DNA of 64,000 bases from Pseudomonas sp. (GTDB taxonomy: Bacteria > Pseudomonadota > Gammaproteobacteria > Pseudomonadales > Pseudomonadaceae). Each line of letters starts with the position of its first letter. Positions within the stretch are counted from its first letter, which is position 1. The position numbers and the translations under genes were made by a program. The DNA lies in contig JBLWZG010000008.1 of assembly GCA_048266525.1 (NCBI GenBank), forward strand, positions 3,136-67,135. Direction: 5' to 3'. This document shows positions 4,716 through 52,020 of this stretch, piece by piece. A model generated the notes under the pieces. The model had not been told where the DNA came from, did no database searches, and worked only from the letters and a program-made list of their open reading frames with translations.

Positions 4716-4717
4716 GC

Positions 4718-7743: not shown

Positions 7744-8445
7744 ATGCTCACTGTTCAAGGATTGAAAATAACCCGAGGGAGTGGTGAGCAACAACATCAA
7801 GTGGTGCTGCCGCACCTTGAGTTGGCCGCCGGTCAAGTGCTGGCGGTCACCGGTGAAAGTGGCTGTGGTAAAAGCACTTTATTGGAAGTCTTAGGTTTGC
7901 TGCTCAAGCCTGACCGAGTGGATATTTTCCAGTTGGGGCAGCCAAGCATCGATATCGTTGACTTACAACTCAAGCAGAATGAAAGTGTGTTGGCGCAGAT
8001 ACGTGCGCAACGCTTAGGCTTTGTTCTGCAAAACGGTGGCTTACTGCCGTATCTCAATGTGCGCGATAACATTCAGCTGCCACGCCGTATCTTAGGTTTA
8101 AGCGCTGACAGTGCGCGTATCCAACAGGCGATTGCCACCCTCAAACTTGAGCATTTGCTGGATAAATTGCCGCAAGCTTTATCGATTGGTGAGCGTCAGC
8201 GCGTGGCCTGCTTGCGCGCTATCGCCCATGAGCCTCAGTTGCTCTTGGCCGATGAGCCAACGGCTGCGCTTGACCCGCACAGTGCGCGACGCTTGTTTAA
8301 CCTGTTTCTTGAAGTGGTCAGTGCTTTGCAACTCAGTGCGCTGGTGGTGTCACACGATTGGGCATTGGTTAAAGAGTTTAATTTACCGGTCTTGCACGCT
8401 CATAGTGAGCCAGGAGTCAGCACCTTTGCGCTCGCCCACCGTTAG
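7744..8445 (+). CDS. ABC transporter ATP-binding protein (LolD/MacB-type)
   Basis: The ATG directly abuts the upstream TAA. Walker A GESGCGKST, signature LSIGERQR, Walker B LLLADEPTAALD, H-loop VVSHD. Confidence 0.9.
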   Translation: MLTVQGLKITRGSGEQQHQVVLPHLELAAGQVLAVTGESGCGKSTLLEVLGLLLKPDRVDIFQLGQPSIDIVDLQLKQNESVLAQIRAQRLGFVLQNGGLLPYLNVRDNIQLPRRILGLSADSARIQQAIATLKLEHLLDKLPQALSIGERQRVACLRAIAHEPQLLLADEPTAALDPHSARRLFNLFLEVVSALQLSALVVSHDWALVKEFNLPVLHAHSEPGVSTFALAHR

Positions 8446-9649: not shown

Positions 9650-11180
9650 AAAATGGCTGAGCATCAGTCTCTTCAGTGCATCGCTGAGCTTGGTGAGTGC
9701 AGCACAGGCCGAAATCACTTGGAATGAAAAACACTACAACCCCGCGGCACTGGCGGATGATGTCACCCTGCCGATGCCCTGCGGTGGCGCGATGGTGTTT
9801 CGCAAAGTGTATATCCCATCCAGTAGCCCGTTGGATGATTATTCCATTCAGCTGGGTCAGGACAGTGAAGACTGGGGCTATGTTGAGCACACGCGGCCAA
9901 CCTTCGTCGCGGGAAGCTTTTCTGAGCCAAATAACAACTCACGTTATTACTTGATGGCCAAGTATGAGATGACTGAGTTGCAATATCAGGCACTGATGAC
10001 GCAAGCGTGCGTGAGCTCTTCCAACAAGTTGCGTCTGCCAGCAGTCAGTTATAGCTGGATGAATGCCATGCAAGCTGCGGACACATACAATTTATGGTTG
10101 CGTCAACAAGCCGCTAAAGTCTTGCCGAAAGAAGATGGGGTGATGGGTTTTGTGCGCTTACCCACCGAGGTTGAGTGGGAGTTTGCCGCACGCGGCGGGC
10201 TGGAAGTGGCTACAGCTGAGTTTCGTGACAACCGTTATCCTATGCCAGACGGAATCAATAACTATGAATGGTTTTCTGGCGCACAGTCGGCCAACGGTAA
10301 ATTGCAGCTCAGTGGCTTATTACAAGCCAATCCGCTGGGCCTGCACGACATGCTGGGCAACGCTTCAGAAATGATGTTTGAATCCTTTCGTCTGAATAAG
10401 CTCGACCGTAACCATGGCCAGGCCGGTGGTTATATCGTGCGTGGCGGCAACTACTTAAGCAAAGCAGAGGATATTCGCAGCGCCAATCGTCGCGAAGAGT
10501 CGTATTACTCTGACAGCGGTGAACAGGGCAATAAAACCACAGGCTTTCGTCTGGTGTTAACCGCACCTATTCTAACCTCGCGCGAACGTGTCGCCAGTAT
10601 TGAACAAAGCTGGAAGACCCTTGGTAGTGGTAATGCTGTTGATGGCAGCCAAGCGAGCACCTCGGAGCTGGGTAAAATTGCCTCTAAAATTGAAGACAAA
10701 GCCCTTAAAGAGCAAATCAAAACCGTAGAAAGTCAGCTGCGCGCCAGTAATCAGCAGCAAGAAGAAGCACGTAATCAAGCGATTCGTGCCAGTCTTAATT
10801 TGGGCGCGTTTTTATGCACAAAAATGCTAGATGACGGCAAGTATTTAGACTTTTTACAGAATAACTATAGTATTAACTGCGCAGTTGAAGAACCTGATGC
10901 AAGTTGTGGTATGCGCAAGAGCAAACTCGACGAGCAAGAGGAACGCTTAAGTAAACTCAGCCGTTATTATGCCAGCAGCCTGATTGATGCAGCGACCTTG
11001 TATGGTGAGTCGGCGATTAAGCAGCAAGTGCCGGTGATGACTGAGATTGTGGAACGTAATAAGCAACTCAGCGAATTAAAGCCTTATTTAGCGGCACACT
11101 GGGATAACCAGAAGTCGTTTCTAAAAAGCCAGCAAATCACTACTAAACAGTGGCTGGAAAACTGTAAAACAGTACGTTAA
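9639..11180 (+). CDS. Secreted FGE-sulfatase (SUMF1/PvdO) fold protein with C-terminal coiled coil
   Basis: GTG at 9639 follows a GGAGAG RBS and yields the signal peptide VNYKKWLSISLFSASLSLVSAAQA. Family motifs are WEFAARGG, GLHDMLGNASEMM, RGGNY and GFRLV. The C-terminal 170 aa are heptad-like and Q/E/K rich. Confidence 0.75.
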   Translation: MNYKKWLSISLFSASLSLVSAAQAEITWNEKHYNPAALADDVTLPMPCGGAMVFRKVYIPSSSPLDDYSIQLGQDSEDWGYVEHTRPTFVAGSFSEPNNNSRYYLMAKYEMTELQYQALMTQACVSSSNKLRLPAVSYSWMNAMQAADTYNLWLRQQAAKVLPKEDGVMGFVRLPTEVEWEFAARGGLEVATAEFRDNRYPMPDGINNYEWFSGAQSANGKLQLSGLLQANPLGLHDMLGNASEMMFESFRLNKLDRNHGQAGGYIVRGGNYLSKAEDIRSANRREESYYSDSGEQGNKTTGFRLVLTAPILTSRERVASIEQSWKTLGSGNAVDGSQASTSELGKIASKIEDKALKEQIKTVESQLRASNQQQEEARNQAIRASLNLGAFLCTKMLDDGKYLDFLQNNYSINCAVEEPDASCGMRKSKLDEQEERLSKLSRYYASSLIDAATLYGESAIKQQVPVMTEIVERNKQLSELKPYLAAHWDNQKSFLKSQQITTKQWLENCKTVR

Positions 11181-12507: not shown

Positions 12508-13803
12508 ATGCAAAGAATTCTTCGCAGCAGCATGCTTTACTCCGCGCTGAGCAGTGAAACCCGCGAGCAACATCAAGTCCTGCTTAAAGTCTGTCCGCCG
12601 CATTTAGCACAACTCTTTGCGATCGGCCGCAGCGGCAGTGATGACCAACTTGAATGGTGGACCCCTTTAGGCGGGCAAGCCAAGCCTTACAGTGCTTTGC
12701 CAGATGAACCGCAAAAACAGCTGTTAAAGGTGTTTGAGCAGCGCCAGAAGTCCTTAGCAGAGTTGGCGGATCATCTTGAACAACGGGGACAAACTGCACC
12801 TGCTCAGACGCTGCGCCGACTGCTCAGTGAGATCGATGTGAGCAAGCTCTACAGCATTGATAATCAACCGGTGTTGGTGGAGTACTACCCAGCAGTAGAA
12901 ACCAAAGTAATCCCGCCGGTTGCTGTTGCTAGCGCCGCGGCGGTTGCAACTGGAACTACGGCGGCGGTGGCAGCTGCGCCACGCGTGCTGAAAAAAAGAG
13001 CGCTATGGCCTTGGCTGTTGCTGCTGTTGCTGCTCGGTTTGGCTTTATTGGTCTGGTGGCAATTGCTCTACAAAGATGTTTCTTTTTTGAATGCGGTCAA
13101 GCTGTTCACTGAAAGAGGCAGTCGCATTGAAAGCTATGCTTGCGCCAAGCAACAAAGCAAGAGTAAACCTGACTTTGTCACCGTATTTGATACGTCCGGC
13201 TCGATGACCCTCAATATCAACGCGTCTGCCGCGGATGAAGAGTGGCTGCTGGATATCGGTGGTTTATATGAGCATGACAACCGTGATCCAAGACGTTTAC
13301 GCGTGCTCAGTTCACCAACCCGCGAAGAAGTGGCCAAGCAAGCCTATGGGCATATGCTGGCGAATTTGCATCCAGACATCGACACCCGTCTGATCACCTT
13401 TGCCGGATGTGGCAGCGTGATTGATCATGGTATGCATAACCACCAACAACGTCCTCAGTTGCTCGAACGCCTGCTGCAAAGCAAAGCTGAAGACGGTACA
13501 CCTTTGGCGGAGAGTTTAAGGGTGGCGGCTAGTCAGGTGGATGGCGTTAACAAAGATGCCATGATCATTTTATTTATAGACGGTGAAGATGGTTGTGGTG
13601 AAAATGTCTGCGCGTTGGCAGGGCAGTTGGCCACTGAAAAACCACGCTTACAAATTAATGTGGTGGACGTCAGTGGTAATGGTTTATCCAGTTGTGCGGC
13701 GCGGCTGACCAATGGGCGCATCTACAGCTCGCAAGATGCAGAGCAGATTAATGCTGTGTTCCTAGAGGCGGCTGAAGAGTTCACTGCGGCGGCGTGTGAA
13801 TAA
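12508..13803 (+). CDS. Membrane-anchored vWA domain protein (cytoplasmic N-domain, Ala-rich linker, one TM, periplasmic vWA)
   Basis: TM helix is LWPWLLLLLLLGLALLVWWQLL. MIDAS motif is VTVFDTSGSM, with a later ILFIDGEDGC. Confidence 0.7.
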   Translation: MQRILRSSMLYSALSSETREQHQVLLKVCPPHLAQLFAIGRSGSDDQLEWWTPLGGQAKPYSALPDEPQKQLLKVFEQRQKSLAELADHLEQRGQTAPAQTLRRLLSEIDVSKLYSIDNQPVLVEYYPAVETKVIPPVAVASAAAVATGTTAAVAAAPRVLKKRALWPWLLLLLLLGLALLVWWQLLYKDVSFLNAVKLFTERGSRIESYACAKQQSKSKPDFVTVFDTSGSMTLNINASAADEEWLLDIGGLYEHDNRDPRRLRVLSSPTREEVAKQAYGHMLANLHPDIDTRLITFAGCGSVIDHGMHNHQQRPQLLERLLQSKAEDGTPLAESLRVAASQVDGVNKDAMIILFIDGEDGCGENVCALAGQLATEKPRLQINVVDVSGNGLSSCAARLTNGRIYSSQDAEQINAVFLEAAEEFTAAACE

Positions 13804-13896
13804 AGCTGCCGTTATGGGGCTGCTATTATGTCGGCTTAACTGTCGCGTAGCTGCACTATGCTTTGTTTGTTAAAGCACAATACGGCTAAGTGATGG

Positions 13897-14748
13897 TCAG
13901 CTCGCGAAAATACTGTAGGCAACATCAGAGCCGTTAAATACCAGCGCATTGTGTAGCTGCACAAGATCTGCGCCTGCCAGCAGGCGCGCTTGATAGTCTT
14001 CGGCGTGGCGAACGCCACCCACGGCAATTAAGGCGATATCGGCGTGAATTTCACCGCGGTAGAAGGCTAATTGCTGGCAGGCGAGGGCCTGCGCAGCTGG
14101 ATTTTGCCAAAGTGCAAAATCGCGTGCGGTCACCGGTTTGCCTAGATCAAAAGCAATTGCAATACCTGCTAACGGAGCGGACCTGAGTGTTTTAATGGTA
14201 GCACCGAGTGTTTCTGTGCCTAGAGTTGTGTGTAGTTTCACGACCATGGGTAAATTGGTGTTGTGCTCTTGCAGCAGGCTAGCCTGTTGCTGTTGGATGC
14301 TGTGCAAACGCGCAATGATCTGTTCTAAGTCGAGTTGGCTGTAGCTGTCGTAGATATTGATACTAATGTAGTCGGCTATTTTGCTGATTGCCGCTAGCGT
14401 GCCGCGCAGCTGCTGAATCGATGCGGGCAGCGCTGCGTCATGTATATTCAGGTTGATACCTAAAATGGCTGGATTGTTGTGCGCTGCTGCATCGCACATG
14501 TGCAGTAACGCTGCTTGATTGAGTGTGCAAGAGCCCAGTTCAATACAACCAAAACCAAGCGCAGCAGCAGCTCGGCCGAGTTGTCCGTGCTTATCAAAAC
14601 CTGCAGCAATACCCAGACGGTTGGGAAAACGAATGCCCATCACTGTCGCTGCGTTATTTTCGAAACAGCGCGCCTGCTGCGCGGCTGCCGGAGCACTTTG
14701 CGCGCGTAAGCACGCTGCATTGAAGGCGTCTGCCCTAGGGTTGTGCAT
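13897..14748 (-). CDS. Divergent dihydroorotate-dehydrogenase-fold (FMN TIM-barrel) protein, probably not a true PyrD
   Basis: Aligns by eye to class-2 PyrD (FPNRLGIAAGFDKHG, GFGCIELGS, LGINLN, YISINI, AVGGV, GADLVQL). It lacks the NRMGFNN loop and the catalytic-Ser context (NISSPNT becomes NIYDSYS). The start is taken as ATG 14748; the tracked TTG 14901 would overlap the upstream gene by 167 nt. Confidence 0.6.
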   Translation of the reverse strand: MHNPRADAFNAACLRAQSAPAAAQQARCFENNAATVMGIRFPNRLGIAAGFDKHGQLGRAAAALGFGCIELGSCTLNQAALLHMCDAAAHNNPAILGINLNIHDAALPASIQQLRGTLAAISKIADYISINIYDSYSQLDLEQIIARLHSIQQQQASLLQEHNTNLPMVVKLHTTLGTETLGATIKTLRSAPLAGIAIAFDLGKPVTARDFALWQNPAAQALACQQLAFYRGEIHADIALIAVGGVRHAEDYQARLLAGADLVQLHNALVFNGSDVAYSIFAS

Positions 14749-15844
14749 GACGGCTGCCGTGCGTGGCACGAAAGTGCTGCATAAAGTCGGCCAACGCCTG
14801 GAGGGCTTGATCGGTTTGTGCGTTATACAGGCTGGCGCGTATGCCGCCAAATTGTTGATGGCCTTGCAGGTGCAGCAAACCCTGTTGCTCGGCAGTCGCA
14901 ATAAAGTGTTGCTCGAGTTGCGCTGTCGGCAAATGAAAGCACAGGTTCATGCTTGAACGGTACAGCGGGTCGACATGATTGCTATAAAAAGAGTCATGAT
15001 CAATGATCGCGTAGAGCTTTTGCGCGCGCTGCGTGTTTCTGGCAGACAGTGCGCTGACGCCGCCTTGTGCAATGATCCAATCACACACCAGCTCGGTTAA
15101 ATAAATGCTATAGGTCAGTGGCGTATTGAGACGGTTGTTGTTAGTAATGTGCTGTTTGTAGCTGAGCATTCTCGGGGTTTCTGGACGCATATTTTCTAGT
15201 AAGTCATCCCTGATGATTAAAATCACCAGCCCTGTTGGGCCTATATTTTTTTGCGTGCCAGCATAGAGCATGGCGTAGTTTTCAATGCAGATCGGCCGCG
15301 ACATAAAGTCTGAAGTCATATCTGCAATCAGAGCGGTAGAGGCCAGCTGCGGATCGGTATGCCGCGCAACACCTTGCGCTGTTTCATTACTGGTGATGTG
15401 GCAATAATCCGCATTGTCTGGAATAGACCAGGTCGATACCTCAGGCATACTCAGCGGCTGGCAATCTTGATTGCTGGCGCCAATATGCACTCGGCCAAAG
15501 GCTGCAGCATCAGCAGCGGCTTTGCGTGACCAATAGCCGCTATCGATATACACCGCTTGCCCGTTGGGCGTGAGCAAGTTCATCGGCACTAAAGCAAACT
15601 GGGTTGATGCACCGCCTTGCATAAATAAGACATGGTAATTATCCGGCACACTGAGAATTTGACGTATTTTTTGCTTGGCCGATGCCATAATCCCCATGAA
15701 GTGCGCACCGGTGAAAGGCATTTCCAGCACAGACATGCCGCTGTTATGCCAATTAAGTAGCTCACTCTGCGCACGGAGTAATACCGACTCTGGCATCAGC
15801 GCAGGCCCGCCAGAGAAATTAAAAGTTTGCTCTCTACTGCGCAT
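14735..15844 (-). CDS. SerC-like class V aminotransferase (phosphoserine aminotransferase family)
   Basis: The N-terminus FNFSGGPALMPESVL and the PLP-lysine context GTQKNIGPTGL are typical of SerC. Its start overlaps the stop of the upstream membrane-protein gene (TAATG). Confidence 0.8.
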   Translation of the reverse strand: MRSREQTFNFSGGPALMPESVLLRAQSELLNWHNSGMSVLEMPFTGAHFMGIMASAKQKIRQILSVPDNYHVLFMQGGASTQFALVPMNLLTPNGQAVYIDSGYWSRKAAADAAAFGRVHIGASNQDCQPLSMPEVSTWSIPDNADYCHITSNETAQGVARHTDPQLASTALIADMTSDFMSRPICIENYAMLYAGTQKNIGPTGLVILIIRDDLLENMRPETPRMLSYKQHITNNNRLNTPLTYSIYLTELVCDWIIAQGGVSALSARNTQRAQKLYAIIDHDSFYSNHVDPLYRSSMNLCFHLPTAQLEQHFIATAEQQGLLHLQGHQQFGGIRASLYNAQTDQALQALADFMQHFRATHGSRHAQP

Positions 15845-16356
15845 TAGAACAGCACCAAGCTATGGCTGGCGGCGGTCATAAAAAATATCAGCGGAAAGGA
15901 TAAAATGGTATTGGTGCGTGATGATAGAAAGGTGATGCGTGAACAGCGAATCCGCTCTTCCAGCGAGGCGGGTACAAAACCTAGGACTTTCTTTTGATGA
16001 GGCCAGAGTACAAACCAGAGGTTGCACACCATGATGATGCCAAGCCAAGCGCCGATGCCAATCACAGCTTGATGGCCGTCGAGGGTTAAGGCGGACAGCA
16101 GTGTGCCTCGGTACCAGAGCATGGCCAAGCCTGAGATCAGCACCAACAGCGAAGCATGCCGAAAAACGCCATGCTCGCGTTGCATACGGCGGGTTAAATT
16201 CTGCGCTCGATCCTCGGCACTGGATTCGCTGTGCAAGGCTTTAAAGGTGGGGTTTTGCACCACATTGGCATAGTTGTGGCCGATCCACACTAAAGCACCA
16301 AGGATGTGCAGGTAACGAAACAGACTGTCGAGAATGGGCCACAACATATTAGACAC
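15844..16356 (-). CDS. His-rich 4-TM membrane protein (resembles the membrane domain of PuuD/HemJ-like heme-binding proteins)
   Basis: Four hydrophobic segments. The N-terminal motif LHILGALVWIGHNYANVVQ has conserved His residues. The start is GTG 16356 or ATG 16347. Confidence 0.5.
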   Translation of the reverse strand: MSNMLWPILDSLFRYLHILGALVWIGHNYANVVQNPTFKALHSESSAEDRAQNLTRRMQREHGVFRHASLLVLISGLAMLWYRGTLLSALTLDGHQAVIGIGAWLGIIMVCNLWFVLWPHQKKVLGFVPASLEERIRCSRITFLSSRTNTILSFPLIFFMTAASHSLVLF

Positions 16357-16450
16357 CGTTAATCAGTTTGAGCGCGAGGACGCAGAGCACTGCGGTAAGA
16401 ATGAGCCCAGCGCTCAGTGTGCCAAACAATGAATCATGCGGAAGTTTCAT
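16349..16450 (-). CDS. 33-aa single-TM micro-protein (not in ORF track)
   Basis: Hand translation of the minus strand gives MKLPHDSLFGTLSAGLILTAVLCVLALKLINGV*. Its ATG overlaps the stop of the PqqE-like gene (ATGA). Its stop abuts or overlaps the start of the next gene. Confidence 0.45.
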   Translation of the reverse strand: MKLPHDSLFGTLSAGLILTAVLCVLALKLINGV

Positions 16451-17580
16451 GATTGACTGCTCAGGTCGACCCAGCCGGCTTCGCGCCCAATCAGCGGCGC
16501 TTTATTGGCGTTGTTGGCCTGTTGCACCGCATCAGTAATCAGTGAGTGATGCGGTGATTTACTGCAAGCCGGATCGGTATTGCTGGCATCGCCGGTGAGT
16601 AAAAATGCTTGGCAGCGACAACCGCCAAAATCGGTGGTTTTTTCGGAGCAATTTCGGCAAGGCTCTTTCATCCAGCTGTCGCCGCGATACAAATTAAACT
16701 CGTTGGACTTGTGCCAAATCCACGACAAATCCTGATTGCGCACATTGGGGAAGTTCAGGTGCTGCATGCTGCGTGCTTGTGAGCAGGGTAAAACAGTCCC
16801 ATCGGGCGCTACGGTTAAATGAATACTGCCCCAGCCGTTCATGCAGGCTTTGGGTCGTCCTTCAAAATAATCTGGGATGACAAAAAACAATGTCATTGTG
16901 TCGCCCAACCGTTGGCGCGCGGCAATCACTTGCGCTTCAGCCTTAAGTAACTCCTCTTGCGTGGGCATCAGCTGTTCACGATTGACCAGCGCCCAGTTGT
17001 AGTACTGCACATTGGCCAGCTCTAAATATTCCACGCCGATCTCTGCGGCCAGCTCGATAATCTGCGGTACCAAATGGATATTGATTTTAGAGATAGGCAC
17101 GTTAAGCACCATCGGAAAGCCGAGGCGTTTGATCTCTTTGGCGATCTTGATTTTCTTATCGAAACAATCCACACCTGAGAGCCAGTGGGTTGTCATTGGC
17201 TCGCTGGACTGCATGCCCAGTTGAATATGCCTTAAGCCTGCTTTTTTTAAACGCTCTAAGCGTTTTGTGGTTAAACCAATGCCTGAGGTGATCAGGTTGG
17301 TGTAGTAGCCTAGACTATTGGCTTCTTCGACGAGTTCTTCTAAGTCTTTGCGCAGCGTCGGCTCGCCACCGGAAAAGCCAATCTGCATAGAGCCCATCTT
17401 CTTGGCATCACGGATCACTTGCTTCCATTCATCGGTGCTCAGTTCGTTGTCTAAGTCATCCAAGTCTGTCGGGTTGCTACAAAAAGCACACTTGAGAGGG
17501 CATTTGTAAGTGAGTTCCAGTAATAGCCAGATGGGTGCACCATTACCATCAAGACGTAATTCTGATCCAACCTTTGTCAT
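16447..17580 (-). CDS. pqqE: PqqE-like radical SAM/SPASM peptide cyclase (second copy)
   Basis: The CxxxCxxC cluster is ELTYKCPLKCAFCSNP. The SPASM Cys pattern [40 protein letters not shown] is nearly identical to the canonical PqqE at 48970. The start is taken at ATG 17580, which gives the same spacing to the cluster as the canonical copy. Confidence 0.85.
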   Translation of the reverse strand: MTKVGSELRLDGNGAPIWLLLELTYKCPLKCAFCSNPTDLDDLDNELSTDEWKQVIRDAKKMGSMQIGFSGGEPTLRKDLEELVEEANSLGYYTNLITSGIGLTTKRLERLKKAGLRHIQLGMQSSEPMTTHWLSGVDCFDKKIKIAKEIKRLGFPMVLNVPISKINIHLVPQIIELAAEIGVEYLELANVQYYNWALVNREQLMPTQEELLKAEAQVIAARQRLGDTMTLFFVIPDYFEGRPKACMNGWGSIHLTVAPDGTVLPCSQARSMQHLNFPNVRNQDLSWIWHKSNEFNLYRGDSWMKEPCRNCSEKTTDFGGCRCQAFLLTGDASNTDPACSKSPHHSLITDAVQQANNANKAPLIGREAGWVDLSSQS

Positions 17581-17842
17581 GACTGACCTCCAGGAAATCG
17601 TTAACCTGCTCGAAAATAAAGCTTTCACTTGCATCGAATTTTTTCTTCAAACCCGCCACGATGTCACCAATACAATGTTGCCCATCGCAATAATTTAAGA
17701 TTTCACCGGCGGTTTGATTGAGCTTCACAATGCCTTCTGGGTACATGATGACGTAGGCATCTTGCGAGGGTTCCCAGCGAAACATAAATGATTCGTTAAT
17801 ATTAAAAAAACAGGTATTCGTTATTGAGCTTTTGTTTTTCAT
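17549..17842 (-). CDS. pqqD: PqqD-like peptide chaperone (second copy)
   Basis: FRWEPSQDAYVIMYPEGIVKLNQTAGEILNYCDG aligns to the canonical [36 protein letters not shown]. It overlaps the PqqE-like start by 32 nt. Confidence 0.8.
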   Translation of the reverse strand: MKNKSSITNTCFFNINESFMFRWEPSQDAYVIMYPEGIVKLNQTAGEILNYCDGQHCIGDIVAGLKKKFDASESFIFEQVNDFLEVSHDKGWIRITS

Positions 17843-17896
17843 AGTGTTAGCGCCTTAATAAGGAGCACTGGGAAAAGCATTCCCAGCGCTCTACTG

Positions 17897-17971
17897 TTAG
17901 CGAACGTAAACGTAAGCTGTTACTTCAAAGCCTAGTCTCAGGTCGCTGTACGCTGGATTAATCCACGGCAT
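17897..17971 (-). CDS. pqqA: PqqA-like precursor peptide, 24 aa (not in ORF track)
   Basis: Hand translation gives MPWINPAYSDLRLGFEVTAYVYVR*, preceded by a GGAGGT RBS. It keeps the W..P...DLR.GFEVT.Y...R pattern, with the Glu and Tyr in the same spacing as the copy at 46904. Confidence 0.8.
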   Translation of the reverse strand: MPWINPAYSDLRLGFEVTAYVYVR

Positions 17972-18246
17972 AATTACCTCCAATAGTTTCTTTGATTTAG
18001 AACGAAATATATCGTTCGGGTTTGAGTATATGTCTTGAAAAAGTCAGAGATACACAATGCTTTGGAAGTAATACATCTATCTATTGGTGTTGGTTTGTCT
18101 ATTTTTCTATTGATAAGTTTTTAAATTGATGTAATTGATTTTTGTCATTTTATTATTGTTTTTTTTGTTGTAAGCGATATTTGTGGAAGCTTTAATTAAA
18201 TATATTGAGTGCTATGTTCAAGGAGATACTGAATAAATCAAAAAAT

Positions 18247-18333
18247 GCCATTGCGAGCGTAGCGAAGCAATCCCATTGGCTTTATTTAGCAACACGTTAG
18301 AGATTGCCGCGTCGCGTTGCTCCTCGCAATGAC
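18247..18333. repeat. Pair of short GC-rich palindromic units in inverted orientation
   Basis: GCCATTGCGAGCGTAGCGAAGCAATCCC (18247-18274) and AGATTGCCGCGTCGCGTTGCTCCTCGCAATGAC (18301-18333) sit within an otherwise AT-rich intergenic region. Confidence 0.5.
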
Positions 18334-18564
18334 CTAATTAATCAGTGCTTCCTCAAGTATTAAGTTGATATAAAACGTCATCATTTTATCTCAAGACAGT
18401 GGTGGCAGGATGTTAGAGGGACGGAAAGGCGGGAGATGTGTTGCAGCTTGCCTGTGAGACAAGAAAGGGTCAGTCGGTTGTCCGAGTTATCCCTCAATAG
18501 GCTTTATGTTGTATCCGATGACAGCTTGCATAAAGCGCTATTGGCGGGATGTGGTGCGCTGTGT

Positions 18565-18849
18565 TTATTTTTTCCAGTAGTTGTTGGCGGCGGCAACGGT
18601 TTGATAGTTGGTGGCGACAACTTGGGCTGCGGCCATTAAATTGTCGGCATTGGTTTCATACATGGCACGTACTTGCGTGCGCTTCTCTGCAGAAGGCTGC
18701 GTGTGTTTAACCGCCATTCGCGACATTTTAATGGCCAGCTCATAGCCTTCTTGTGGCGTTTTGGTTTCCAGGCTGCTGAGCCACTGTTCGGCGAAAGCGG
18801 CAGGGCTGATAAAGACGGTTAGGCAGAGTGCGGTTATTGTTTTGTTCAT
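18565..18849 (-). CDS. Small secreted helical protein, unknown function
   Basis: Signal peptide MNKTITALCLTVFISPAAFA begins at ATG 18849. No family recognised. Confidence 0.5.
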   Translation of the reverse strand: MNKTITALCLTVFISPAAFAEQWLSSLETKTPQEGYELAIKMSRMAVKHTQPSAEKRTQVRAMYETNADNLMAAAQVVATNYQTVAAANNYWKK

Positions 18850-19137
18850 AATGGACTCACTGTTTGTATGTATGAGGGGCATGTATTGCGTTCGTTGAAC
18901 TGCACTGGCAGTGTGTCGAGAGGCTGGCTGTTTTTTGAATACTACTTTGGTGTGTTTTGAAATATTTTCGAATTAAGACTTCGGTGTGCTACTGGCGTTG
19001 AATAGGTCAGGCGGCTTGGCTGGTATTGCGCTGTGGCTAGGCAGCACGTAAGGCGTCTGTGTTGCCTGTTCTAAAGCACTATTGCATTCTTCTTCGGGGC
19101 TGTGGATTGTGTAAGCCATTCTCGCTAAGGGGCATAT

Positions 19138-21579
19138 ATGCACGCTATTGACGCACCAACTGATCCTTTATGGGAAATCGATTTAGGCGCAGGCTGTCAA
19201 CTCACCGTGTTACAAGCGGCGGGTGCGCAGCAATGTGCTTTGGCGCTGAGTCTGTGTTCCGGCAGTCATGATGAGCCTTCTGCATATTTGGGCATGGCGC
19301 ATTTCTTAGAGCACTTGGTGTTTCGTGGCAGTAAAAACTATGCGACAGATGATGGCTTAATGGCCTTTGTGCAGCGTCATGGCGGGCAGGTCAATGCACA
19401 AACCCAAGCGCTGCACACCCTGTTTCACTTCCAAGTGGAGGCGCCACTCTTTATCGGTGCACTTGCACGCTTGGTCGATATGCTGGTGTCGCCACGTTTG
19501 GAGCAGGCGATGCTGGAGTCTGAACGAGAAGTGCTGCATGAAGAGTTTCATTTGTATTGCCAGGCCCCACAGATGCTGATGGATGCCGCGCTTGCTCTGG
19601 GCTTGTCGACAGCGCACCCCTTGCAGCGTTTTTATGCCGGTCACCGTGACAGCTTAGCCATTGAGGATGCAGGCTTTAACCAAGTGTTAAGCGCGTTTCA
19701 TCAAAGCGCGTATTTATCCAGTCAGTTAAACATAGTTGTGGTGGTTCCCGATGTTTGGCCACTTTGGCAGGATAACGTTTTAAATGCATTACGGCCCTTA
19801 ACCGAGGTGTTACGAGACAAGCCGCGCCGCGCATTAGCTGCGATAAGTGTTCAGCCAAGCGCAGCGCTTAAGTTATGTTTGCCGCTGCCGGAGCACTATT
19901 GTGTGGTGCATGTGCCGATTAACCAGCAGGCTGAGGGCTTGGCGCAACTGGCGGAGAAACTGCAGCACGCCTTAGTTGTGGGCGCATCGCACTCGTTTCT
20001 AGCCTATGCCAAACAACAGCATGGCTGCTCCAGTATTAAAGTGCGCGCACCTTATGCAGGATCTGAGCAAGGTGTTTTAACTTTCGAGTTTAAATGTTTA
20101 CACAATGATGGTGCGGCGCTATTCACCGCCTTGTTTGCTTGGCTAAGGCAATGGCAGCAGCAGCTGCACAGCGCAGAGCAGCAGGCGTATGAGGCGCAAG
20201 CGCAGGCCAATCGTTGGTTGGTTGCACAGCCCCTAGCTAAAGCCCAGCAGATACTCCGCGATGGCTGGCCGTTACAAGGAATCACAGTGGCCTGCTTCGC
20301 CGCGCTGAAGCAGGTTATGCAGCAGATTGCCGAGCAGGCGTTTGTTCAAGTACTCGCAGGTCCAGAGCCGGTAGAGGGCTTTTATCAGCAAGGTTTGCCG
20401 CTGCAAGTAGAGCGGCTGCCTGTGCGTCAGATTGCCGTTGTGGATACTGCCACCTATAGGTTTTGTAATCCCTTATTTGCTCGGCATGAGCATGTGCCTT
20501 GTGCGCAGAGGCTTGCCTGTAATGCCTTAGCGCAGCATCAACCTGAGGCGTTGGCACAGGGTTTGGCGGTCTGTTATTGGGGATGGCAGGTTGCTCAGCC
20601 GTATGCGCATGCGCAGCGCTTACAGGGGCATATTGCACCTGTGCAGGCGTTGCTGAGCTACAACGCCGTGCAGGTGCAAGTGGAGTGCATGCGCGGTTAT
20701 GTGTTTGTTCGCTTGACCGGTCCAACTGCGTTTTTACCCCTTGCTTTGCAGCAGGTGCTGGCGGCTGTGGACGTACCTTTGCTTGATCTGCCCGTTGAGG
20801 AGAACGGCCACTTTGCTTTGCGCAGGCTTCTGCAGCGCTTGCCTGCGGCCCTTGCTGGGGCTGAACAGGCGTCTGGCACAGCGCAGATGGCATGGGCTGG
20901 TCAAGTGCAAAGCGCGCTGTGGTTGGGTCAGCCGCTGCCAGTGGATGTGTTGCCTGAAGATTATGTGCAGCGTTTACAAGGGTTGCCGAGCAGTCAGGCA
21001 GAGCAACGCCGTTTGCTGGGCTGGCAGTGTGTCGTGGATGACGCTACTGCTGATGCTGTATTAATCGTGCACATCCCTTTACCAGCTATCAACAGTGCGG
21101 ATAAGGATCGGATGCGCGCGGTAAACAAGGTGCTGAGTCGGCATTTTCAGAGTGCCTTACAGCGTTCTTTGCGCGATGAACAGGGCTTATGTTATGCGGT
21201 CTTGGTGATGCCGTCGGCGCAAGTCGAGCATGAGGGGCTGGTTTGTGCTGTGCAGTCCAGTAAGGTCAGCGCAGCACGGATCTTGACTGAGATACAGCAC
21301 TGTTTAGCAGATTTTCAGGCCGGTTTGCCGGCACACTTGGAGGTGCTGCTGACAGAAATATTGGCTCAGGCTGAACAGTTAGAGCGTGGCTGCTTTAGTG
21401 TTGAACACTTAAGTCAGATGCTGTTTAGGCACTGGTTGGAACAACGCCTCGCCACAGGTTTGGCTGAAGAGGCGCGAGCGGTGCGCGCCATAAGCACTGC
21501 TGATATTGGGCGGTATTGCCAAACCATCCAAGATCAGCGCTGCTGGTTTTTATTGAGCAATCAGGCGGCTGCTGAATAA
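19138..21579 (+). CDS. pqqF: M16-family zinc protease PqqF
   Basis: 813-aa ORF with the inverted zinc motif HxxEH (GMAHFLEHLVFRGSKNY). Its size and context match PqqF. Confidence 0.75.
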   Translation: MHAIDAPTDPLWEIDLGAGCQLTVLQAAGAQQCALALSLCSGSHDEPSAYLGMAHFLEHLVFRGSKNYATDDGLMAFVQRHGGQVNAQTQALHTLFHFQVEAPLFIGALARLVDMLVSPRLEQAMLESEREVLHEEFHLYCQAPQMLMDAALALGLSTAHPLQRFYAGHRDSLAIEDAGFNQVLSAFHQSAYLSSQLNIVVVVPDVWPLWQDNVLNALRPLTEVLRDKPRRALAAISVQPSAALKLCLPLPEHYCVVHVPINQQAEGLAQLAEKLQHALVVGASHSFLAYAKQQHGCSSIKVRAPYAGSEQGVLTFEFKCLHNDGAALFTALFAWLRQWQQQLHSAEQQAYEAQAQANRWLVAQPLAKAQQILRDGWPLQGITVACFAALKQVMQQIAEQAFVQVLAGPEPVEGFYQQGLPLQVERLPVRQIAVVDTATYRFCNPLFARHEHVPCAQRLACNALAQHQPEALAQGLAVCYWGWQVAQPYAHAQRLQGHIAPVQALLSYNAVQVQVECMRGYVFVRLTGPTAFLPLALQQVLAAVDVPLLDLPVEENGHFALRRLLQRLPAALAGAEQASGTAQMAWAGQVQSALWLGQPLPVDVLPEDYVQRLQGLPSSQAEQRRLLGWQCVVDDATADAVLIVHIPLPAINSADKDRMRAVNKVLSRHFQSALQRSLRDEQGLCYAVLVMPSAQVEHEGLVCAVQSSKVSAARILTEIQHCLADFQAGLPAHLEVLLTEILAQAEQLERGCFSVEHLSQMLFRHWLEQRLATGLAEEARAVRAISTADIGRYCQTIQDQRCWFLLSNQAAAE

Positions 21580-21777: not shown

Positions 21778-21967
21778 ATAAATATTAATTTTTAAACTTA
21801 GTTCTTTTGGATGCATACGATAGAGATGAATTATATATATCCAAAGAAGCTATCTGTAAGTTGTGTTCAATAGCCTCTAAAGCGGTGTATTAGTCGAGTG
21901 CATAGCTTCTAATAATCAGTACCGAAGCGACTGATAGGTCAGTTGTTGCATTTCTGTGGAGAAGTTT

Positions 21968-23152: not shown

Positions 23153-23173
23153 GCCCCTGCGATTGTGCTGACA

Positions 23174-23205
23174 AACCAGAAGTGTTCAGGCCTTCTGGTT
23201 TTTTA
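23174..23205 (+). terminator. Rho-independent terminator
   Basis: AACCAGAAG-loop-CTTCTGGTT followed by TTTTT. Confidence 0.8.
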
Positions 23206-23299
23206 TTATTAAGCCTTTAGTAGGTACTGCTCGCGACTGAAGGGGCATGGGTTTCTGGCTTGATGTTCTTAAAATAGACACATAATAGGTAGGTGAGTT

Positions 23300-28140: not shown

Positions 28141-28178
28141 GGTCTTTGACCTCGTTTTTATAGATAACACACAAGTGA

Positions 28179-46903: not shown

Positions 46904-46975
46904 ATGTGGACTAAACCTAGCTTTAATGATCTGCGTATTGGCTTTGAAGTAACCATGTACATCGCAAACCGTTGA
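46904..46975 (+). CDS. pqqA: PQQ precursor peptide PqqA, 23 aa (not in ORF track)
   Basis: Hand translation gives [23 protein letters not shown], preceded by an AGAGGAA RBS and immediately upstream of pqqB. Confidence 0.95.
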
Positions 46976-47046
46976 TACATTGCGCTTCATGTTAAACGTC
47001 TAACGATCAGGCCCCAGCCCTGCTGGGGCCACTAAGGAAAAGCAGC

Positions 47047-47961
47047 ATGTACATTCAAGTATTGGGTTCAGCAGCAGGTGGTGGTTTTCCGCAATGGAAC
47101 TGCAATTGTCATAATTGCCATGGATTACGCCAAGGCACTTTAAATGCTGTGCCACGTACACAGTCTTCGATTGCTATTAGTGATGATGGTGTCAACTGGA
47201 TTTTATGCAATGCTTCGCCGGACATTCGAAACCAGCTTGAAGCATTTCCCGCTTTGCAGCCTGCGCGTCAAGCACGCGACACAGCGATTGCAGGGATTAT
47301 TTTACTCGACAGCCAGATCGACCATGTCACCGGTTTACTGACCTTGCGTGAAGGCTGTCCGCATGACGTCTGGTGCACCGACATGGTGCATCAAGATTTA
47401 ACTTCAGGCTTTCCCATCTTTAATATGCTGGCGCACTGGAACGGTGGTCTTAATCACCAGTTGATTAGCCTTGATGGCAGCGCGTTTAGCGTGCCGGCCT
47501 GCCCAGCCTTAAGCATCACAGCAGTGGCGTTGCGCAGTAATGCTCCGCCGTATTCACCGCGCCGTGATGATCCACACCCAGGCAATAATATTGGCCTGCT
47601 GATTGAAGACACACGCAGCGGTAAAACAGTGTTTTACGCGCCGGGTCTGGGTGAGATGGATGACAACCTGCGCCGCATTATGGCCAGTGCTGATTGTTTA
47701 TTAGTTGATGGCACTGTCTGGCGTGATGATGAAATGCAAGTCAACGGTGTGGGTACTAAACTGGGTAGCGAAATGGGCCATTTGGCGCAAAGCGGCCCTG
47801 GCGGCATGCTCGAAGTGCTAGCGGACTACCCAAACGCACGGCGGATTTTAATTCATATCAACAATACCAACCCTATTCTGGATGAGGACTCACCCGAGCG
47901 CGCGCAAGTGCAGGCTGCCGGTGTGGAAGTGTCTTATGACGGAATGAGTATTCAACTCTAG
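47047..47961 (+). CDS. pqqB: PqqB (MBL-fold PQQ biosynthesis protein)
   Basis: The N-terminus [24 protein letters not shown] is characteristic of PqqB. Confidence 0.95.
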
Positions 47962-47970
47962 GAGCCTGCG

Positions 47971-48723
47971 ATGAGCGAGCAAGCGATGACCCCCGAGCAG
48001 TTTGAGCAGGCGCTGCGCGCGAAGGGTGATTATTACCACATTCATCACCCCTACCATATCGCGATGCACAACGGGCAGGCGACCCGTGAGCAGATTCAAG
48101 GTTGGGTGGCCAATCGGTTTTATTACCAAATCAATATTCCCATGAAAGATGCCGCAATTATGGCCAACTGCCCTGACCGCGATGTGCGTCGAGAGTGGGT
48201 GCAGCGTATTTTGGATCATGATGGTGCGCCCGGTGAAGAAGGTGGGATTGAAGCCTGGCTGCGTCTGGCAGAAGCGGTCGGCTTGGATCGCGAGCAAGTC
48301 TTGTCCGGTGATTTGGTCTTGCCGGGCGTGCGCTTTGCGGTGGATGCCTACCTTAACTTTGCGCGCCGTGCCAGTTGGCAAGAAGCGGCGAGCAGCTCGT
48401 TAACCGAGTTATTCGCACCGCATATTCATCAATCGCGTTTGGATGCATGGCCGCAACATTACCCATGGATTGATGAAAGCGGTTATGACTATTTCCGTAA
48501 GCGTCTCAGCGAAGCGCGCCGTGATGTTGAGCATGGCCTCAGAATTACTTTGCAGCATTACACCACGCTCGCCGCGCAGCAGCGTATGTTAGAAATTTTG
48601 CAATTTAAACTGGATGTGCTGTGGAGCATGTTGGATGCGATGAGCATGGCCTATGAGCTCAAGCGTCCACCGTATCACACGGTGACCGAGCAACAGGTGT
48701 GGCATCGAGGGTTGGGTGTATGA
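47971..48723 (+). CDS. pqqC: Pyrroloquinoline-quinone synthase PqqC
   Basis: 250-aa ORF recognised as PqqC ([28 protein letters not shown]). Confidence 0.95.
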
Positions 48724-48998
48724 GTGAGTTTAAGCTTGAGGATCGCCCGCGTATTCGTCGTGGTTTTCGCTTGCAGTGGGAGCCGGTACAAAACTGTGAT
48801 GTGCTGCTGTACCCAGAGGGCATGATTCAACTCAATGACAGCGCTGCGCATATTTTAAAGTTAGTCGATGGTCAGCGCAGTATTGCAGAGATTATTGCGC
48901 AGTTGCAGGAGCAGTTTCCTGATGTGCAGGGGCTGGACGAAGATGTTTTAACCTTTATGGGGGTGGCCTATGCACAGTTCTGGCTTAAGTCCTGCTAA
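48720..48998 (+). CDS. pqqD: PqqD peptide chaperone
   Basis: ATG 48720 forms an ATGA overlap with the pqqC stop. Contains [27 protein letters not shown]. Confidence 0.9.
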
Positions 48999-50118
48999 GG
49001 CTGTGCAAAGCCCTCCGTTGTGGTTGCTGGCTGAGCTGACTTACCGTTGCCCTCTGCAATGCCCGTATTGCTCCAATCCAGTAGATTTTGCTCGCAGTGG
49101 CGAAGAGTTAAATACTGAGCAATGGATTGAGGTGTTTCGCCAGGCGCGTGAGCTGGGCGCTGCGCAATTGGGGTTTTCCGGTGGCGAGCCGCTGGTGCGG
49201 CAAGATTTGGCCGAGCTGGTCAAAGCGGCACGTGATTTAGGCTTTTATACCAATCTGATTACCTCAGGCATTGGCCTAACTGAAAAACGTATTACTGAGT
49301 TAAGCGAGGTCGGTTTAGACCATATTCAGATCAGCTTTCAGGCGGCCGATGAAGAGGTCAACAATATGTTGGCCGGCTCCAAAAAAGCTTTTGCACAAAA
49401 ACTGGCGATGGCCAAAGCAGTGAAAGCTGCGGGCTATCCAATGGTGCTCAATTTTGTTACGCATCGGCACAATATCGATCGCATGGACCGCATTATCGAG
49501 TTGTGTATTGAGCTGGATGCTGACTTTGTTGAGCTGGCCACCTGCCAATTTTATGGTTGGGCCGAGCTCAATCGCGCCGCATTATTGCCGACCCGCGAGC
49601 AGCTCGACCGTGCTGAAAAAGTCACCCAACAATGGCGTGAGAAGTTGGCGGCAGAGAACCATCCCTGCAAGCTGATTTTTGTTACGCCTGATTATTACGA
49701 AGAACGTCCCAAAGCTTGCATGAACGGTTGGGGCAGTTTGTTTTTGGATATCACTCCAGATGGCACTGCCTTGCCCTGTCACAGTGCGCGCCAGTTGCCG
49801 ATCAAGTTTCCCAATGTTAAAGAACATAGCGTGCAACACATCTGGCAAGAGTCATTCGGTTTTAATAAGTTTCGCGGCTTTGATTGGATGCCAGAACCCT
49901 GCCGCTCTTGTGATGAAAAAGAAAATGATTTTGGTGGCTGCCGTTGTCAGGCCTTTATGCTCACCGGTGATGCGAGTAATACCGACCCTGTGTGCAGTAA
50001 ATCTGAGCACCATGGGATTATTTTGGCGGCGCGCGAGCAGGCCGAACAGGCCCCGCTGGGCGTGGAGCAAATGGTTTATCGCAATGAAAAAATGTCCAAC
50101 ATTATTATCAAAGGTTGA
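48970..50118 (+). CDS. pqqE: PqqE radical SAM/SPASM PqqA peptide cyclase
   Basis: CxxxCxxC cluster [16 protein letters not shown] plus SPASM Cys clusters. It overlaps pqqD by 29 nt. Confidence 0.95.
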
Positions 50119-52020
50119 GTGCTGATGCTTGAGTCGCCGTCCTCTAACGCGGGCTTTTGGCCAAGCCAATGGAGTGCGCAGCAGGCGGCCGCCGCGGGCA
50201 AAGAGCTGAATGAGTTAAAAGTGTCAGCGCACGGGGTGTTTTGGGCTGAGTCTGATCCGCACAGTGCATGCACCTGGGTCTATCGTTTTGAGCATGCGAC
50301 ACAAGCCAGCCAGCGCTTCACTCCTGACGGTTTTTCGGTGCGCAGCCGCGTTTATGAGTACGGTGGTGGCTCATTTTGCCTGACCGATAATGGTCTGGTG
50401 TTTGTCAATGAAGCCGATCAGCAGCTGTATCTGCAAACCTGGCAAGGCGCACCGCAGCCGTTGACTCAGCGCCATGCTTGCCGTTATGCGGATATGCAAT
50501 TTGACCGGCTGACGCAAAGCCTTGTGGCCATTGAAGAAGAGCACGGTGGGCAAACTGTCGAGCATCGCTTGGTCCGTGTCAGTTTAACCGGTTTGGATGA
50601 ACAGGCTTGTCCTGCACCTACGGTTCTGGTTCAAGGCAGTGATTTTTACGCCGCGCCACGCTTAAGCCCCAATGCTCAGCGCTTGCTCTGGATTGAATGG
50701 CAGCGCCCCGATCAACCTTGGACGCAAACTCAAGCCTGGTGTGCGCAGCGTAATGCCGACGGAGGCTGGGGCGCAGCCTATTGTTTAGCGGGCGCAGCCG
50801 GTGCGGCAGCTGTGCAACAACCCGGGTTTGATCACAATAATCGAGCGTTGCTGCTCAATGATCAAGACGGCTATTGGCAGTTATGGCGTGAAGACAGACC
50901 AGGCCAATTAGACAAACTGCAAGGTGTCGAAGCTGACTACACCGGAGCACCTTGGCAGCTGGGCGGCTGCAATTATCTCGCGCTGGACAATGATGAGTAT
51001 TTGCTCAGTTGGCTGTATAACGGCTTTGGTCATTTGGCTGTGTATTGCTTTGCCGAGCAGCGCGTGATCAAGCGACTGGCCAGTGAGTACAGTCGCTTAA
51101 GGCACTTGGCAGCGGATGATGATTTTTTCTATTGCATTGCCTCGCATGTCGCGCAAGGCAGCGCGGTGCTAGCGATTGATCGAAGCACGGCTAAGGTGCA
51201 AGTGCTGACTCAGTTACAGATTGAGCTTGCTGTGGATGAGATCGCTCAGCCCTATAGTTTTTATTTCCCTAGTGGCGACAATCACCAAGTGCATGCGTTT
51301 TTTTATCCACCGTGCAATACGCGCTGTCAATTGGCTGAAACAGAGCGGCCACCCTTGTTGGTGTTTTTGCATGGTGGACCCACCTCAGCCTGTTATCCGG
51401 TGTTTGAGCCACGTATTCAGTTTTGGACGCAAAGGGGTTTTGCCGTGGCCGATTTGAACTACCGCGGCAGCACTGGCTTTGGTCGTCAGTATCGACAGCT
51501 CTTGCGTCATCAGTGGGGCTTGCTCGAGGTGGAGGATGTCTGCGCCCTGGTGGAACACTTGACCAAGAAAGATTGGATTAACCCGCAGCAGGTGTGTGTA
51601 CGCGGCGCCAGTGCTGGCGGTTATACAGCATTGTTAAGCATCGCCGCCAGCCAGCAGTTTGCCGCTGCGGCTAGCTTATATGGAGTGAGTGATCCGTGGG
51701 CTTTACGGCGCATGACGCACAAATTTGAAGCGGATTATTTAGATTGGTTATTGGGTGCGCCAGATGCGTTTACCACCCGTGCGCCGTTAGCAAAGGTCAA
51801 GAAAATCGCCACTCCCGTGATTTTCTTTCAAGGCGGGCGTGATGCGGTGGTGGTGCCTGAGCAAACCGCTGTGATGGTTGATGCTTTAGCCGCGCAGGGG
51901 GTAAAGGTTGAATGCCATGTGTTTGCCGAGGAAGGGCATGGTTTTCGCGATGCGGCCAATTTGGCACAGGTGCTGCGCCTTGAGTTGGATTTTTATCAGC
52001 GTGCCTTTCAAGGTGGTTAA
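50119..52020 (+). CDS. S9-family (prolyl oligopeptidase-type) serine peptidase, PqqG/PqqH-like position
   Basis: N-terminal beta-propeller-like region, nucleophile elbow RGASAGGY, and late motifs GGRDAVV / EGHGF. The start is GTG 50119 or ATG 50125, directly after pqqE. Confidence 0.8.
   Translation: MLMLESPSSNAGFWPSQWSAQQAAAAGKELNELKVSAHGVFWAESDPHSACTWVYRFEHATQASQRFTPDGFSVRSRVYEYGGGSFCLTDNGLVFVNEADQQLYLQTWQGAPQPLTQRHACRYADMQFDRLTQSLVAIEEEHGGQTVEHRLVRVSLTGLDEQACPAPTVLVQGSDFYAAPRLSPNAQRLLWIEWQRPDQPWTQTQAWCAQRNADGGWGAAYCLAGAAGAAAVQQPGFDHNNRALLLNDQDGYWQLWREDRPGQLDKLQGVEADYTGAPWQLGGCNYLALDNDEYLLSWLYNGFGHLAVYCFAEQRVIKRLASEYSRLRHLAADDDFFYCIASHVAQGSAVLAIDRSTAKVQVLTQLQIELAVDEIAQPYSFYFPSGDNHQVHAFFYPPCNTRCQLAETERPPLLVFLHGGPTSACYPVFEPRIQFWTQRGFAVADLNYRGSTGFGRQYRQLLRHQWGLLEVEDVCALVEHLTKKDWINPQQVCVRGASAGGYTALLSIAASQQFAAAASLYGVSDPWALRRMTHKFEADYLDWLLGAPDAFTTRAPLAKVKKIATPVIFFQGGRDAVVVPEQTAVMVDALAAQGVKVECHVFAEEGHGFRDAANLAQVLRLELDFYQRAFQGG

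Follow-up and report, generated by a model that had tools for sequence, protein, structure and literature searches.

Can the last steps of pyrroloquinoline quinone (PQQ) synthesis proceed without oxygen, and if so, with which genes? The question was raised by a 64,000-nucleotide (nt) stretch of a Pseudomonas sp. genome (assembly GCA_048266525.1, contig JBLWZG010000008.1, positions 3,136 to 67,135 of the forward strand; hereafter the window). In addition to a complete canonical pqq set, the window carried a second set of pqqA, pqqD and pqqE genes (here pqqA2, pqqD2 and pqqE2) in a seven-gene cluster, together with a 33-aa membrane peptide (X), a PuuD-like membrane protein (U), a SerC-like aminotransferase (S) and a protein with a dihydroorotate dehydrogenase (DHODH) fold (H). 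These seven genes were confirmed as one real, conserved, non-canonical functional unit. We think it somewhat probable that the cluster provides an O2-independent route for the late PQQ steps in nitrate-respiring bacteria, replacing PqqB and PqqC. Five lines of evidence point to anaerobic PQQ synthesis: FNR-type boxes upstream of pqqA2, nar and nor genes as neighbours in Marinobacter, the recurrence of PQQ dehydrogenases and canonical pqq genes nearby, the arrangement of the cluster in Motiliproteus, and the lack of a conserved new client enzyme in the flanks.

The original prediction, made from the sequence letters, had described seven open reading frames (ORFs) running from 17971 to 13897 on the minus strand with tightly packed junctions, and all were as claimed (Table 1). 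pqqD2 and pqqE2 overlapped by 32 nt, an overlap also found in locus L001; the stop of pqqE2 and the start of X shared ATGA, the stop of U and the start of S shared TAATG, and S and H overlapped by 14 nt. The E-x3-Y motif of PqqA was present in PqqA2 as EVTAY. Folding predicted a hairpin downstream of canonical pqqA1 that was comparable to the one between pqqA2 and pqqD2. The unit had also been said to lack PqqB and PqqC, with a canonical pqqABCDE and peptidase set 29 kb away, and both statements were borne out: no gene for Lactamase_B_2 (PqqB) or TENA/PqqC was found in 13897-21579, and both were present in the window only at 47047-48723. A scan for sigma-70 promoters and terminators gave no excess of sites over shuffled sequence, so that internal promoters were neither shown nor excluded.

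Table 1. Features of the pqqA2 cluster and its surroundings in the window
Feature	Position	Strand	Evidence
pqqA2, 24-aa precursor peptide MPWINPAYSDLRLGFEVTAYVYVR	17971-17897	minus	TIGR02107 36.6 bits (cut-off 20), PF08042 33.2 bits
GC-rich 12-bp hairpin between pqqA2 and pqqD2	17863..17891	minus	-22.4 kcal/mol, z = -3.4
pqqD2, peptide chaperone	17842-17549	minus	TIGR03859 83.8 bits (cut-off 46)
pqqE2, radical S-adenosylmethionine (SAM)/SPASM enzyme, Glu-Tyr cross-linking	17580-16447	minus	TIGR02109 499 bits (cut-off 381)
X, 33-aa micro-protein with a single transmembrane (TM) helix MKLPHDSLFGTLSAGLILTAVLCVLALKLINGV	16450-16349	minus	no Pfam or NCBIfam family match
U, 167-aa His-rich 4-TM membrane protein	16347-15844	minus	PF06181 Urate_ox_N 45.8 bits (cut-off 26.9)
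S, SerC-fold aminotransferase dependent on pyridoxal 5'-phosphate (PLP)	15844-14735	minus	NF003764 447 (cut-off 253); TIGR01364 423, under its cut-off of 444
H, 283-aa class-2 DHODH-fold TIM-barrel protein	14748-13897	minus	PF01180 66.6 bits
Weak FNR/ANR-type box ATGACAAAAATCAA	18148-18135	minus	177 nt upstream of the pqqA2 ATG; two mismatches to TTGAT-N4-ATCAA
Hexameric tyrosine-coordinated haem protein (HTHP), N-terminal extension ahead of the domain	18565..18882	minus	PF11534 112.5 bits
PqqF-like M16 peptidase, divergent from the cluster	19138..21579	plus	PF00675 88.7 bits, PqqF-like_C_4 42 bits
Canonical pqqA1-B-C-D-E and S9 peptidase, O2-dependent route	46904..52020	plus	ORFs and Pfam matches; 29 kb from the cluster

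We evaluated the distribution of the cluster in one genome per GTDB species, which gave 48 loci with at least 34% identity to H. The order D2-E2-(X)-U-S-H was kept in 47 of them as far as the contigs reach, and the 48th ended at a contig edge; such an arrangement is far beyond chance. Loci with no more than 31% identity to H contained an ordinary pyrD and no cluster. Further look-ups recovered the same cluster in Marinobacterium, a Piscirickettsiaceae metagenome-assembled genome (MAG), Motiliproteus and Billgrantia, and the strict co-occurrence and translational coupling of A2-D2-E2-X-U-S-H span Pseudomonadaceae, Marinobacter, Halomonas/Billgrantia, Marinobacterium, Piscirickettsiaceae and Motiliproteus. 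This was the outcome expected of a functional unit in the original prediction, which had proposed looking for pqqA/D/E paralogs beside SerC- and DHODH-like genes in other genomes; the contrary result that it named as a refutation, an absence of any such pairing among relatives, was decisively not borne out. The H family comprised about 42 proteins at E < 1e-30, from Marinobacter, Halomonas/Billgrantia, Stutzerimonas and MAGs, and between it and true PyrD the E-values jumped from 3.9e-31 to 1.2e-15, or about 15 orders of magnitude. The closest isolate for the cluster proteins was Denitrificimonas caeni, a member of the Pseudomonadaceae (89% identity for E2, 81% for U); a MAG labelled Desulfuromonas was nearer (96% for E2). 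Classic denitrifiers were among the carriers. A canonical pqq set was also present wherever this was visible, namely in the window, Stutzerimonas, two Marinobacter species, Marinobacterium and Motiliproteus. In Stutzerimonas/Pseudomonas the cluster was divergent from an adjoining canonical pqqABCDE, and in the two Marinobacter species the canonical set lay 6 kb off.

The statement in the original prediction that no pathway with this gene set had been described proved wrong, as the cluster appears in section 2.9 of a 2025 study in Molecular Microbiology (PMC12423496). In Hyphomicrobium denitrificans, the pqqA/D/E copies Hden_0551-0553 were co-regulated with denitrification and O2-independent ubiquinone synthesis, and Hden_0550, 0549 and 0548 were noted to resemble the N-terminal domain of PuuD, SerC and PyrD, respectively (PMC12423496). 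The same pqqAED-puuD-serC-pyrD cluster was reported there from Halomonas, S. stutzeri, Methylophaga and Azoarcus. PqqC requires O2, and Klebsiella and P. aeruginosa, which have the canonical genes only, make no PQQ anaerobically (PMC12423496). The published cluster and that of the window share gene set and order, a second pqqA/D/E and a canonical pqqABCDE in the same genome; hosts related to the window are denitrifiers, as its own host may be. The published account differs in being a speculation from co-regulation, and neither the 33-aa peptide and FNR-type boxes nor the missing phosphate pocket of the SerC-like protein, the invariant PqqA2 tail and the PqqE2 clade are mentioned in it; the window lineage additionally has HTHP and PqqF-like neighbours, and its H is of a shortened subfamily that evolves fast. 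Our literature search turned up no further paper on the cluster. The system was thus noticed in 2025 and is not characterised, and NCBIfam is without models for X, U and the S and H subfamilies.

S was about 50% identical to solved phosphoserine aminotransferases (PSATs) and retained the PLP lysine, the Asp bound to the ring nitrogen of PLP and the Arg for the alpha-carboxylate. The motifs QKN, DMTSD and GG[IVL]RAS occurred in nearly all 52 S members from the loci and in the window copy, with few variants (QKS, ADVTSD or ADTTSD, and GGVRVS). PSATs bind the phosphate of phosphoserine through His-Arg pairs (At H110/R111 and H396/R397; PMC6043687). In S, nearly all 52 members read PF[T/S] in place of SHR (two had PFG and one had PFA), and every one had lost the Arg of GHR, leaving GH followed by a non-Arg residue, so that the phosphate-binding residues were lost in 53 of 53 members (the 52 from the loci and the window copy). 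S is therefore not a phosphoserine aminotransferase and not a housekeeping serC product, which answers a refuting condition set in the original prediction, that S might simply be the serC of the genome.

The AlphaFold2 model of H (predicted local distance difference test, pLDDT, 86) had the class-2 DHODH TIM-barrel fold with N-terminal helices, and its top fold matches were the DHODHs of E. coli and human (probability 1.0, TM-score 0.63-0.73), with 7t5k and 1f76 as the best PDB entries. All NCBIfam pyrD models scored far under their cut-offs (best 98.7 against 267). H had no equivalent of E. coli PyrD residues 91-122, the catalytic Ser175 loop (NISSPN) was not conserved, and NTT was changed to FDxGxP; the roles of these residues in the catalytic Ser loop and in orotate binding (Asn) are those we presume from 1F76. 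Putative flavin mononucleotide (FMN)-site motifs were invariant, as were the family-specific residues D201, W214, C224 and H266. The orotate-binding loops are lost, and "degenerate DHODH fold", as the protein had been called from the start, describes it fairly. In H, the central third (14533-14195) could not be aligned at the DNA level with relatives whose pqqA2-to-S block was 76-91% identical, and compared with L006 the window H was 58% identical, against 89-96% for E2, U and S. Recombination was considered as the cause of this low identity, but the alignment break at about 14533 recurred against two different relatives and coincided with poorly conserved central columns of the family alignment. 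We therefore read the central third as a region where selection is relaxed or diversifying, with cassette-like replacement as an alternative.

These results bear on another account of the locus, in which a redundant pqqADE duplicate happens to lie beside an ordinary serC, an ordinary pyrD and unrelated membrane genes. NF003764 does score S above its cut-off, and some database records name the proteins phosphoserine aminotransferase, PuuD and DHODH. Yet the gene order with its overlapping stop and start codons held in 47 of 48 loci as well as three further genera, S was without its phosphate-binding residues, H was without its orotate-binding loops and far below every pyrD cut-off, the H family was widely separated from PyrD, and loci with no more than 31% identity had no cluster. 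Chance juxtaposition is barely credible on this evidence, and ordinary serC and pyrD neighbours were ruled out by the active-site losses and the strict synteny.

U was the most conserved of the tailoring genes, with aligned homologues at least 58% identical, and its invariant residues included H14, H24, H59, H162, C135, R63 and E58. The AlphaFold2 model (pLDDT 88.5) comprised four long TM helices; searching the PDB with it gave a best E-value of 0.44, and hence no solved relative and no clue to a cofactor. A profile search of U against 1.84 billion representatives returned 1074 clusters, of which the top 150 were all 63-267 aa long with no fusion among them. U is homologous to the membrane domain of PuuD (PF06181), the match spanning only profile positions 160-241 of 295. 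In PuuD, an 8-TM DUF989 domain whose helices I, II, V and VI show conservation is fused to a C-terminal cytochrome c, and the protein has been proposed to oxidise urate on the cytosolic side, making no H2O2 and passing electrons to cytochrome c (PMC4562309). U, in contrast, is half that size (4 of 8 TM helices) and has no fused cytochrome c and no purine-catabolism context; neither a CxxCH motif nor a cytochrome c domain was found in it, which places it outside the definition of a PuuD urate hydroxylase, and its substrate is certainly not urate. What U may share with PuuD is membrane-level oxidation or hydroxylation of a heterocycle in which the respiratory chain, and not O2, receives the electrons. 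In public annotation, the 4-TM protein is called "urate hydroxylase PuuD" and, in several genomes, the DHODH-fold protein is called "phosphoserine aminotransferase"; these names are likely misannotations that propagate.

The peptide and its cross-linking enzyme form subfamilies of their own. The Glu/Tyr core of PqqA2, RLGFEVT-x-Y, was identical to that of canonical PqqA, whereas the C-terminal ends differed: canonical PqqA copies in the same loci ended in ...RIGFEVTMY[FI]ANR, unlike the ...EVTAYVYVR of PqqA2. The C-terminal DLRLGFEVTAYVYVR was identical in the 48 loci and the window, and across all loci the A2-type tail AYV[YH][VT]R was found in 54, including one variant (L087) that ends in ...VTAYVHTR. 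PqqE2 (50 sequences) and canonical PqqE (16 sequences) were reciprocally monophyletic, with a mean between-clade identity of 53% (range 49-59%; 49% in the window). The reciprocal monophyly and an identity of about 50% ruled out a recent pqqADE duplication and imply one that is old and functionally maintained. An X-type ORF with the motif MKLPHDSxxGTLxAGxxLT... separated pqqE2 from U in 47 of 53 related loci (48 of 54 with the window), and in L090 the gene caller had predicted X as a gene.

The surroundings of pqqA2 point to anoxia. FNR/ANR/DNR-type boxes (TTGAT-N4-ATCAA) were located at -171 to -219 from the pqqA2 ATG in relatives of the window. The box was perfect in 15 and had one mismatch in 7 of 49 sequences (the 48 loci and the window), compared with rates of 0.125% and 0.175%, respectively, in random 60-nt windows. 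Spacers of the boxes differed among Marinobacter, Halomonas, the P. borbori group and the P. indica group. In D. caeni the box had one mismatch, and the box in the window lay at the same spacing. In eight Marinobacter species the cluster directly followed narG-narK|narX-narL-SCP2, and in M. metalliresistant norCBQD lay within 10 kb of it. Within 17972-18190 (minus strand), the leader of about 130 nt between the FNR-type box and pqqA2 contained short blocks shared across genera, (G/C)ACCAA followed about 20 nt later by (T/C)CCAAAGT..TAT, in the window and in L001, L003, L016, L017, L025, L042, L043 and L086. The blocks may belong to a promoter, operator or leader RNA element; an Rfam scan of 13600-19200, which includes the leader, found no family.

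A further link to PQQ came from Motiliproteus sp. MSK22-1 (L088), in which the genes ran A2-D2-E2-X-U-S-H-pqqB-pqqC, followed by a truncated PqqD remnant and an S9 peptidase. A second pqqA or pqqE was absent from this locus, its only PqqA/D/E set being of the A2/D2/E2 type. In the simplest reading, the product of A2/D2/E2 therefore appears to feed the canonical PQQ enzymes. The remnant, a 69-aa canonical-type PqqD after pqqC (12683-12892 of L088) with no pqqE behind it, looks like decay of redundant canonical D and E genes.

By homology and genomic context, we infer catalytic roles for U, X, S and H, with PQQ as the product, along the following lines. PqqD2 would bind PqqA2 and PqqE2 would cross-link its Glu C-gamma and Tyr ring in the canonical manner, to judge from homology at equivalog level; cross-linking by PqqE2 would itself already be O2-independent. 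The PqqF-like M16 peptidase, or another protease, may then release the cross-linked Glu-Tyr unit. From there, the three proteins U, H and S would stand in for the O2-requiring hydroxylase PqqB and oxidase PqqC. By analogy with PuuD, U, probably with the 33-aa X, could oxidise or hydroxylate the ring at the cytoplasmic face with oxygen derived from water, and the electrons would pass to the respiratory chain, with HTHP as a possible partner in the window lineage. H would use FMN and a quinone acceptor, in place of O2, to dehydrogenate N-CH(COO-)-CH2 units in the pyridine and pyrrole rings being formed, a reaction whose local chemistry would be that of dihydroorotate conversion to orotate. S may act on an amino-acid moiety of the cross-linked intermediate, and its enlarged hydrophobic Pro-Phe-Thr pocket could hold a gamma-aryl substituent where PSAT binds the phosphate or gamma-carboxylate.

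Several observations weigh against this O2-independent PQQ route. PQQ keeps both amino nitrogens, so that it is not obvious where an aminotransferase would enter the route; S is its weakest link and leaves room for a different end product. H, lacking the DHODH catalytic Ser and Asn and with a central third that evolves nearly freely, may perhaps be no dehydrogenase. The FNR-type box of the window, with its two mismatches, is not significant on its own, and that of the S. stutzeri group is only degenerate. That these genes encode the last, oxygen-free steps of PQQ synthesis was introduced as "tempting to speculate" in the published account (PMC12423496). Finally, the invariant non-canonical tail of PqqA2 and the separate, ancient clade of PqqE2 would also fit a different product.

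The latter points, together with the remodelled substrate pocket in all S members and the fact that PQQ needs no aminotransferase, favour an unlikely though tenable alternative, in which cross-linked PqqA2 is diverted to a distinct redox cofactor or another peptide that is made on ribosomes and modified after translation (RiPP) and transamination removes or relocates one amino group. Mycofactocin offers a general precedent, with a radical-SAM enzyme and PqqD-like chaperone followed by a TIM-barrel flavoenzyme. Against a distinct product, no conserved new client enzyme or transporter was found in the flanks of the cluster loci, which varied by genus; the neighbours that did recur were PQQ dehydrogenases and canonical pqq genes, the A2-type peptide of Motiliproteus was the only one beside pqqB and pqqC, and the RLGFEVT-x-Y core was that of canonical PqqA. 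More specifically, it is doubtful that the cluster makes a second peptide-derived quinone cofactor in place of PQQ, with transamination, a PuuD-like oxidase and a DHODH-fold flavoprotein leading to a new heterocycle; if it did, the users of that cofactor would be still unrecognised enzymes in anaerobically respiring proteobacteria. Of the original proposal of a distinct quinone-like cofactor or RiPP pathway, then, the conserved non-canonical unit stands, as does the point that its tailoring chemistry must differ from the canonical route, whereas the genomic context favours PQQ made without O2.

The co-existence of a canonical pqq set and the cluster wherever it could be seen, and the partly degenerate look of H, are also consistent with a more modest role, in which the cluster aids the supply of PQQ at low O2 and does not make it de novo. 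It might repair or recycle adducts or shunt intermediates, PQQ being known to form adducts with amino acids, or it might boost the supply of cross-linked precursor for PqqB and PqqC under micro-oxic conditions. We consider this improbable: a private PqqA/D/E set was always present and translationally coupled to U, S and H, which argues for the processing of freshly cross-linked peptide over salvage, and FNR-type control and nar adjacency point to full anoxia.

Compared with canonical pqqABCDE(F), the cluster has the PqqA core, PqqD and PqqE at equivalog level, a hairpin after pqqA and an M16 or S9 peptidase nearby. It differs in its PqqA tail and PqqE clade and in having U, S, H and the micro-peptide in place of PqqB (an Fe/O2 hydroxylase) and PqqC (an O2-dependent oxidase). 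A second, anaerobically controlled set that would replace oxygenases or oxidases of cofactor synthesis in facultative anaerobes has parallels in UbiU/V/T against UbiH/F/I, HemN against HemF, and HemG/HemJ against HemY; the protein families there are unrelated. Mycofactocin (MftA/B/C/E/D) is analogous in its precursor peptide, PqqD-like chaperone, radical-SAM/SPASM enzyme, peptidase and TIM-barrel flavoenzyme, but has another peptide core and flavoenzyme family, and neither an aminotransferase nor a membrane protein.

Denitrification fed with methanol or ethanol, both in wastewater treatment and in nitrogen loss from marine and soil habitats, is driven by the PQQ-dependent dehydrogenases of these alcohols, and no concrete genetic candidate other than this cluster exists for the missing anaerobic PQQ route. 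It renders the old question of anaerobic PQQ directly testable, and can be recognised by the PqqA2 tail, the PqqE2 clade, the PF[T/S] motif of S, the 33-aa KLPHDS peptide and the FNR-type boxes. If confirmed, an O2-independent PQQ route would add a new oxygen-independent cofactor biosynthesis beside UbiUVT and HemN, and would give first functions to a half-size PuuD-like protein, a SerC fold without a phosphate pocket and a remodelled DHODH fold. It would also correct a widespread PuuD/SerC/PyrD misannotation and open the way to anaerobic PQQ production.

Upstream of the cluster, an AT-rich spacer of about 600 bp separated pqqA2 from the HTHP gene. An HTHP neighbour was common to L004/L006, L007 (D. 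caeni) and L090, amounting to D. caeni and two MAG lineages, and was not kept elsewhere; it may serve as a periplasmic redox partner or be unrelated. The PqqF-like gene was syntenic in L004, L006, L007 and L090, and in Billgrantia (L089) it was located directly upstream of pqqA2 on the same strand, which makes it a neighbour in two unrelated lineages.

Elsewhere in the window, a block unrelated to pqq (25-11180, plus strand) encoded homologues of the virulence factors SrfB and "Virul_Fac" (SrfC-like); after these came VWA-domain proteins, a MacB-type ABC/FtsX pair and a protein of 528 aa with an FGE-sulfatase domain. The wider surroundings of the cluster form a PQQ and alcohol-oxidation island. 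Its ped/exa-like part at 27478-46550 held two PQQ-dependent dehydrogenases (35833-37716 and 42856-44634), one aldehyde dehydrogenase and accessory genes of the ped type; it also contained a LuxR-type response regulator, an ABC-2 transporter, a YNCE-like beta-propeller, periplasmic binding proteins and a metallo-beta-lactamase-fold protein. Between this island and the PqqF-like gene, the plus-strand genes at 21956-27038 encoded a 398-aa protein without a Pfam match (its L090 counterpart matched Porin_4), a FIST-domain protein and a PAS/histidine-kinase/receiver hybrid. In L004, L006, L007 and L090 the synteny of these genes with the pqqF side of the cluster was kept, and they may form a sensory module tied to the locus.

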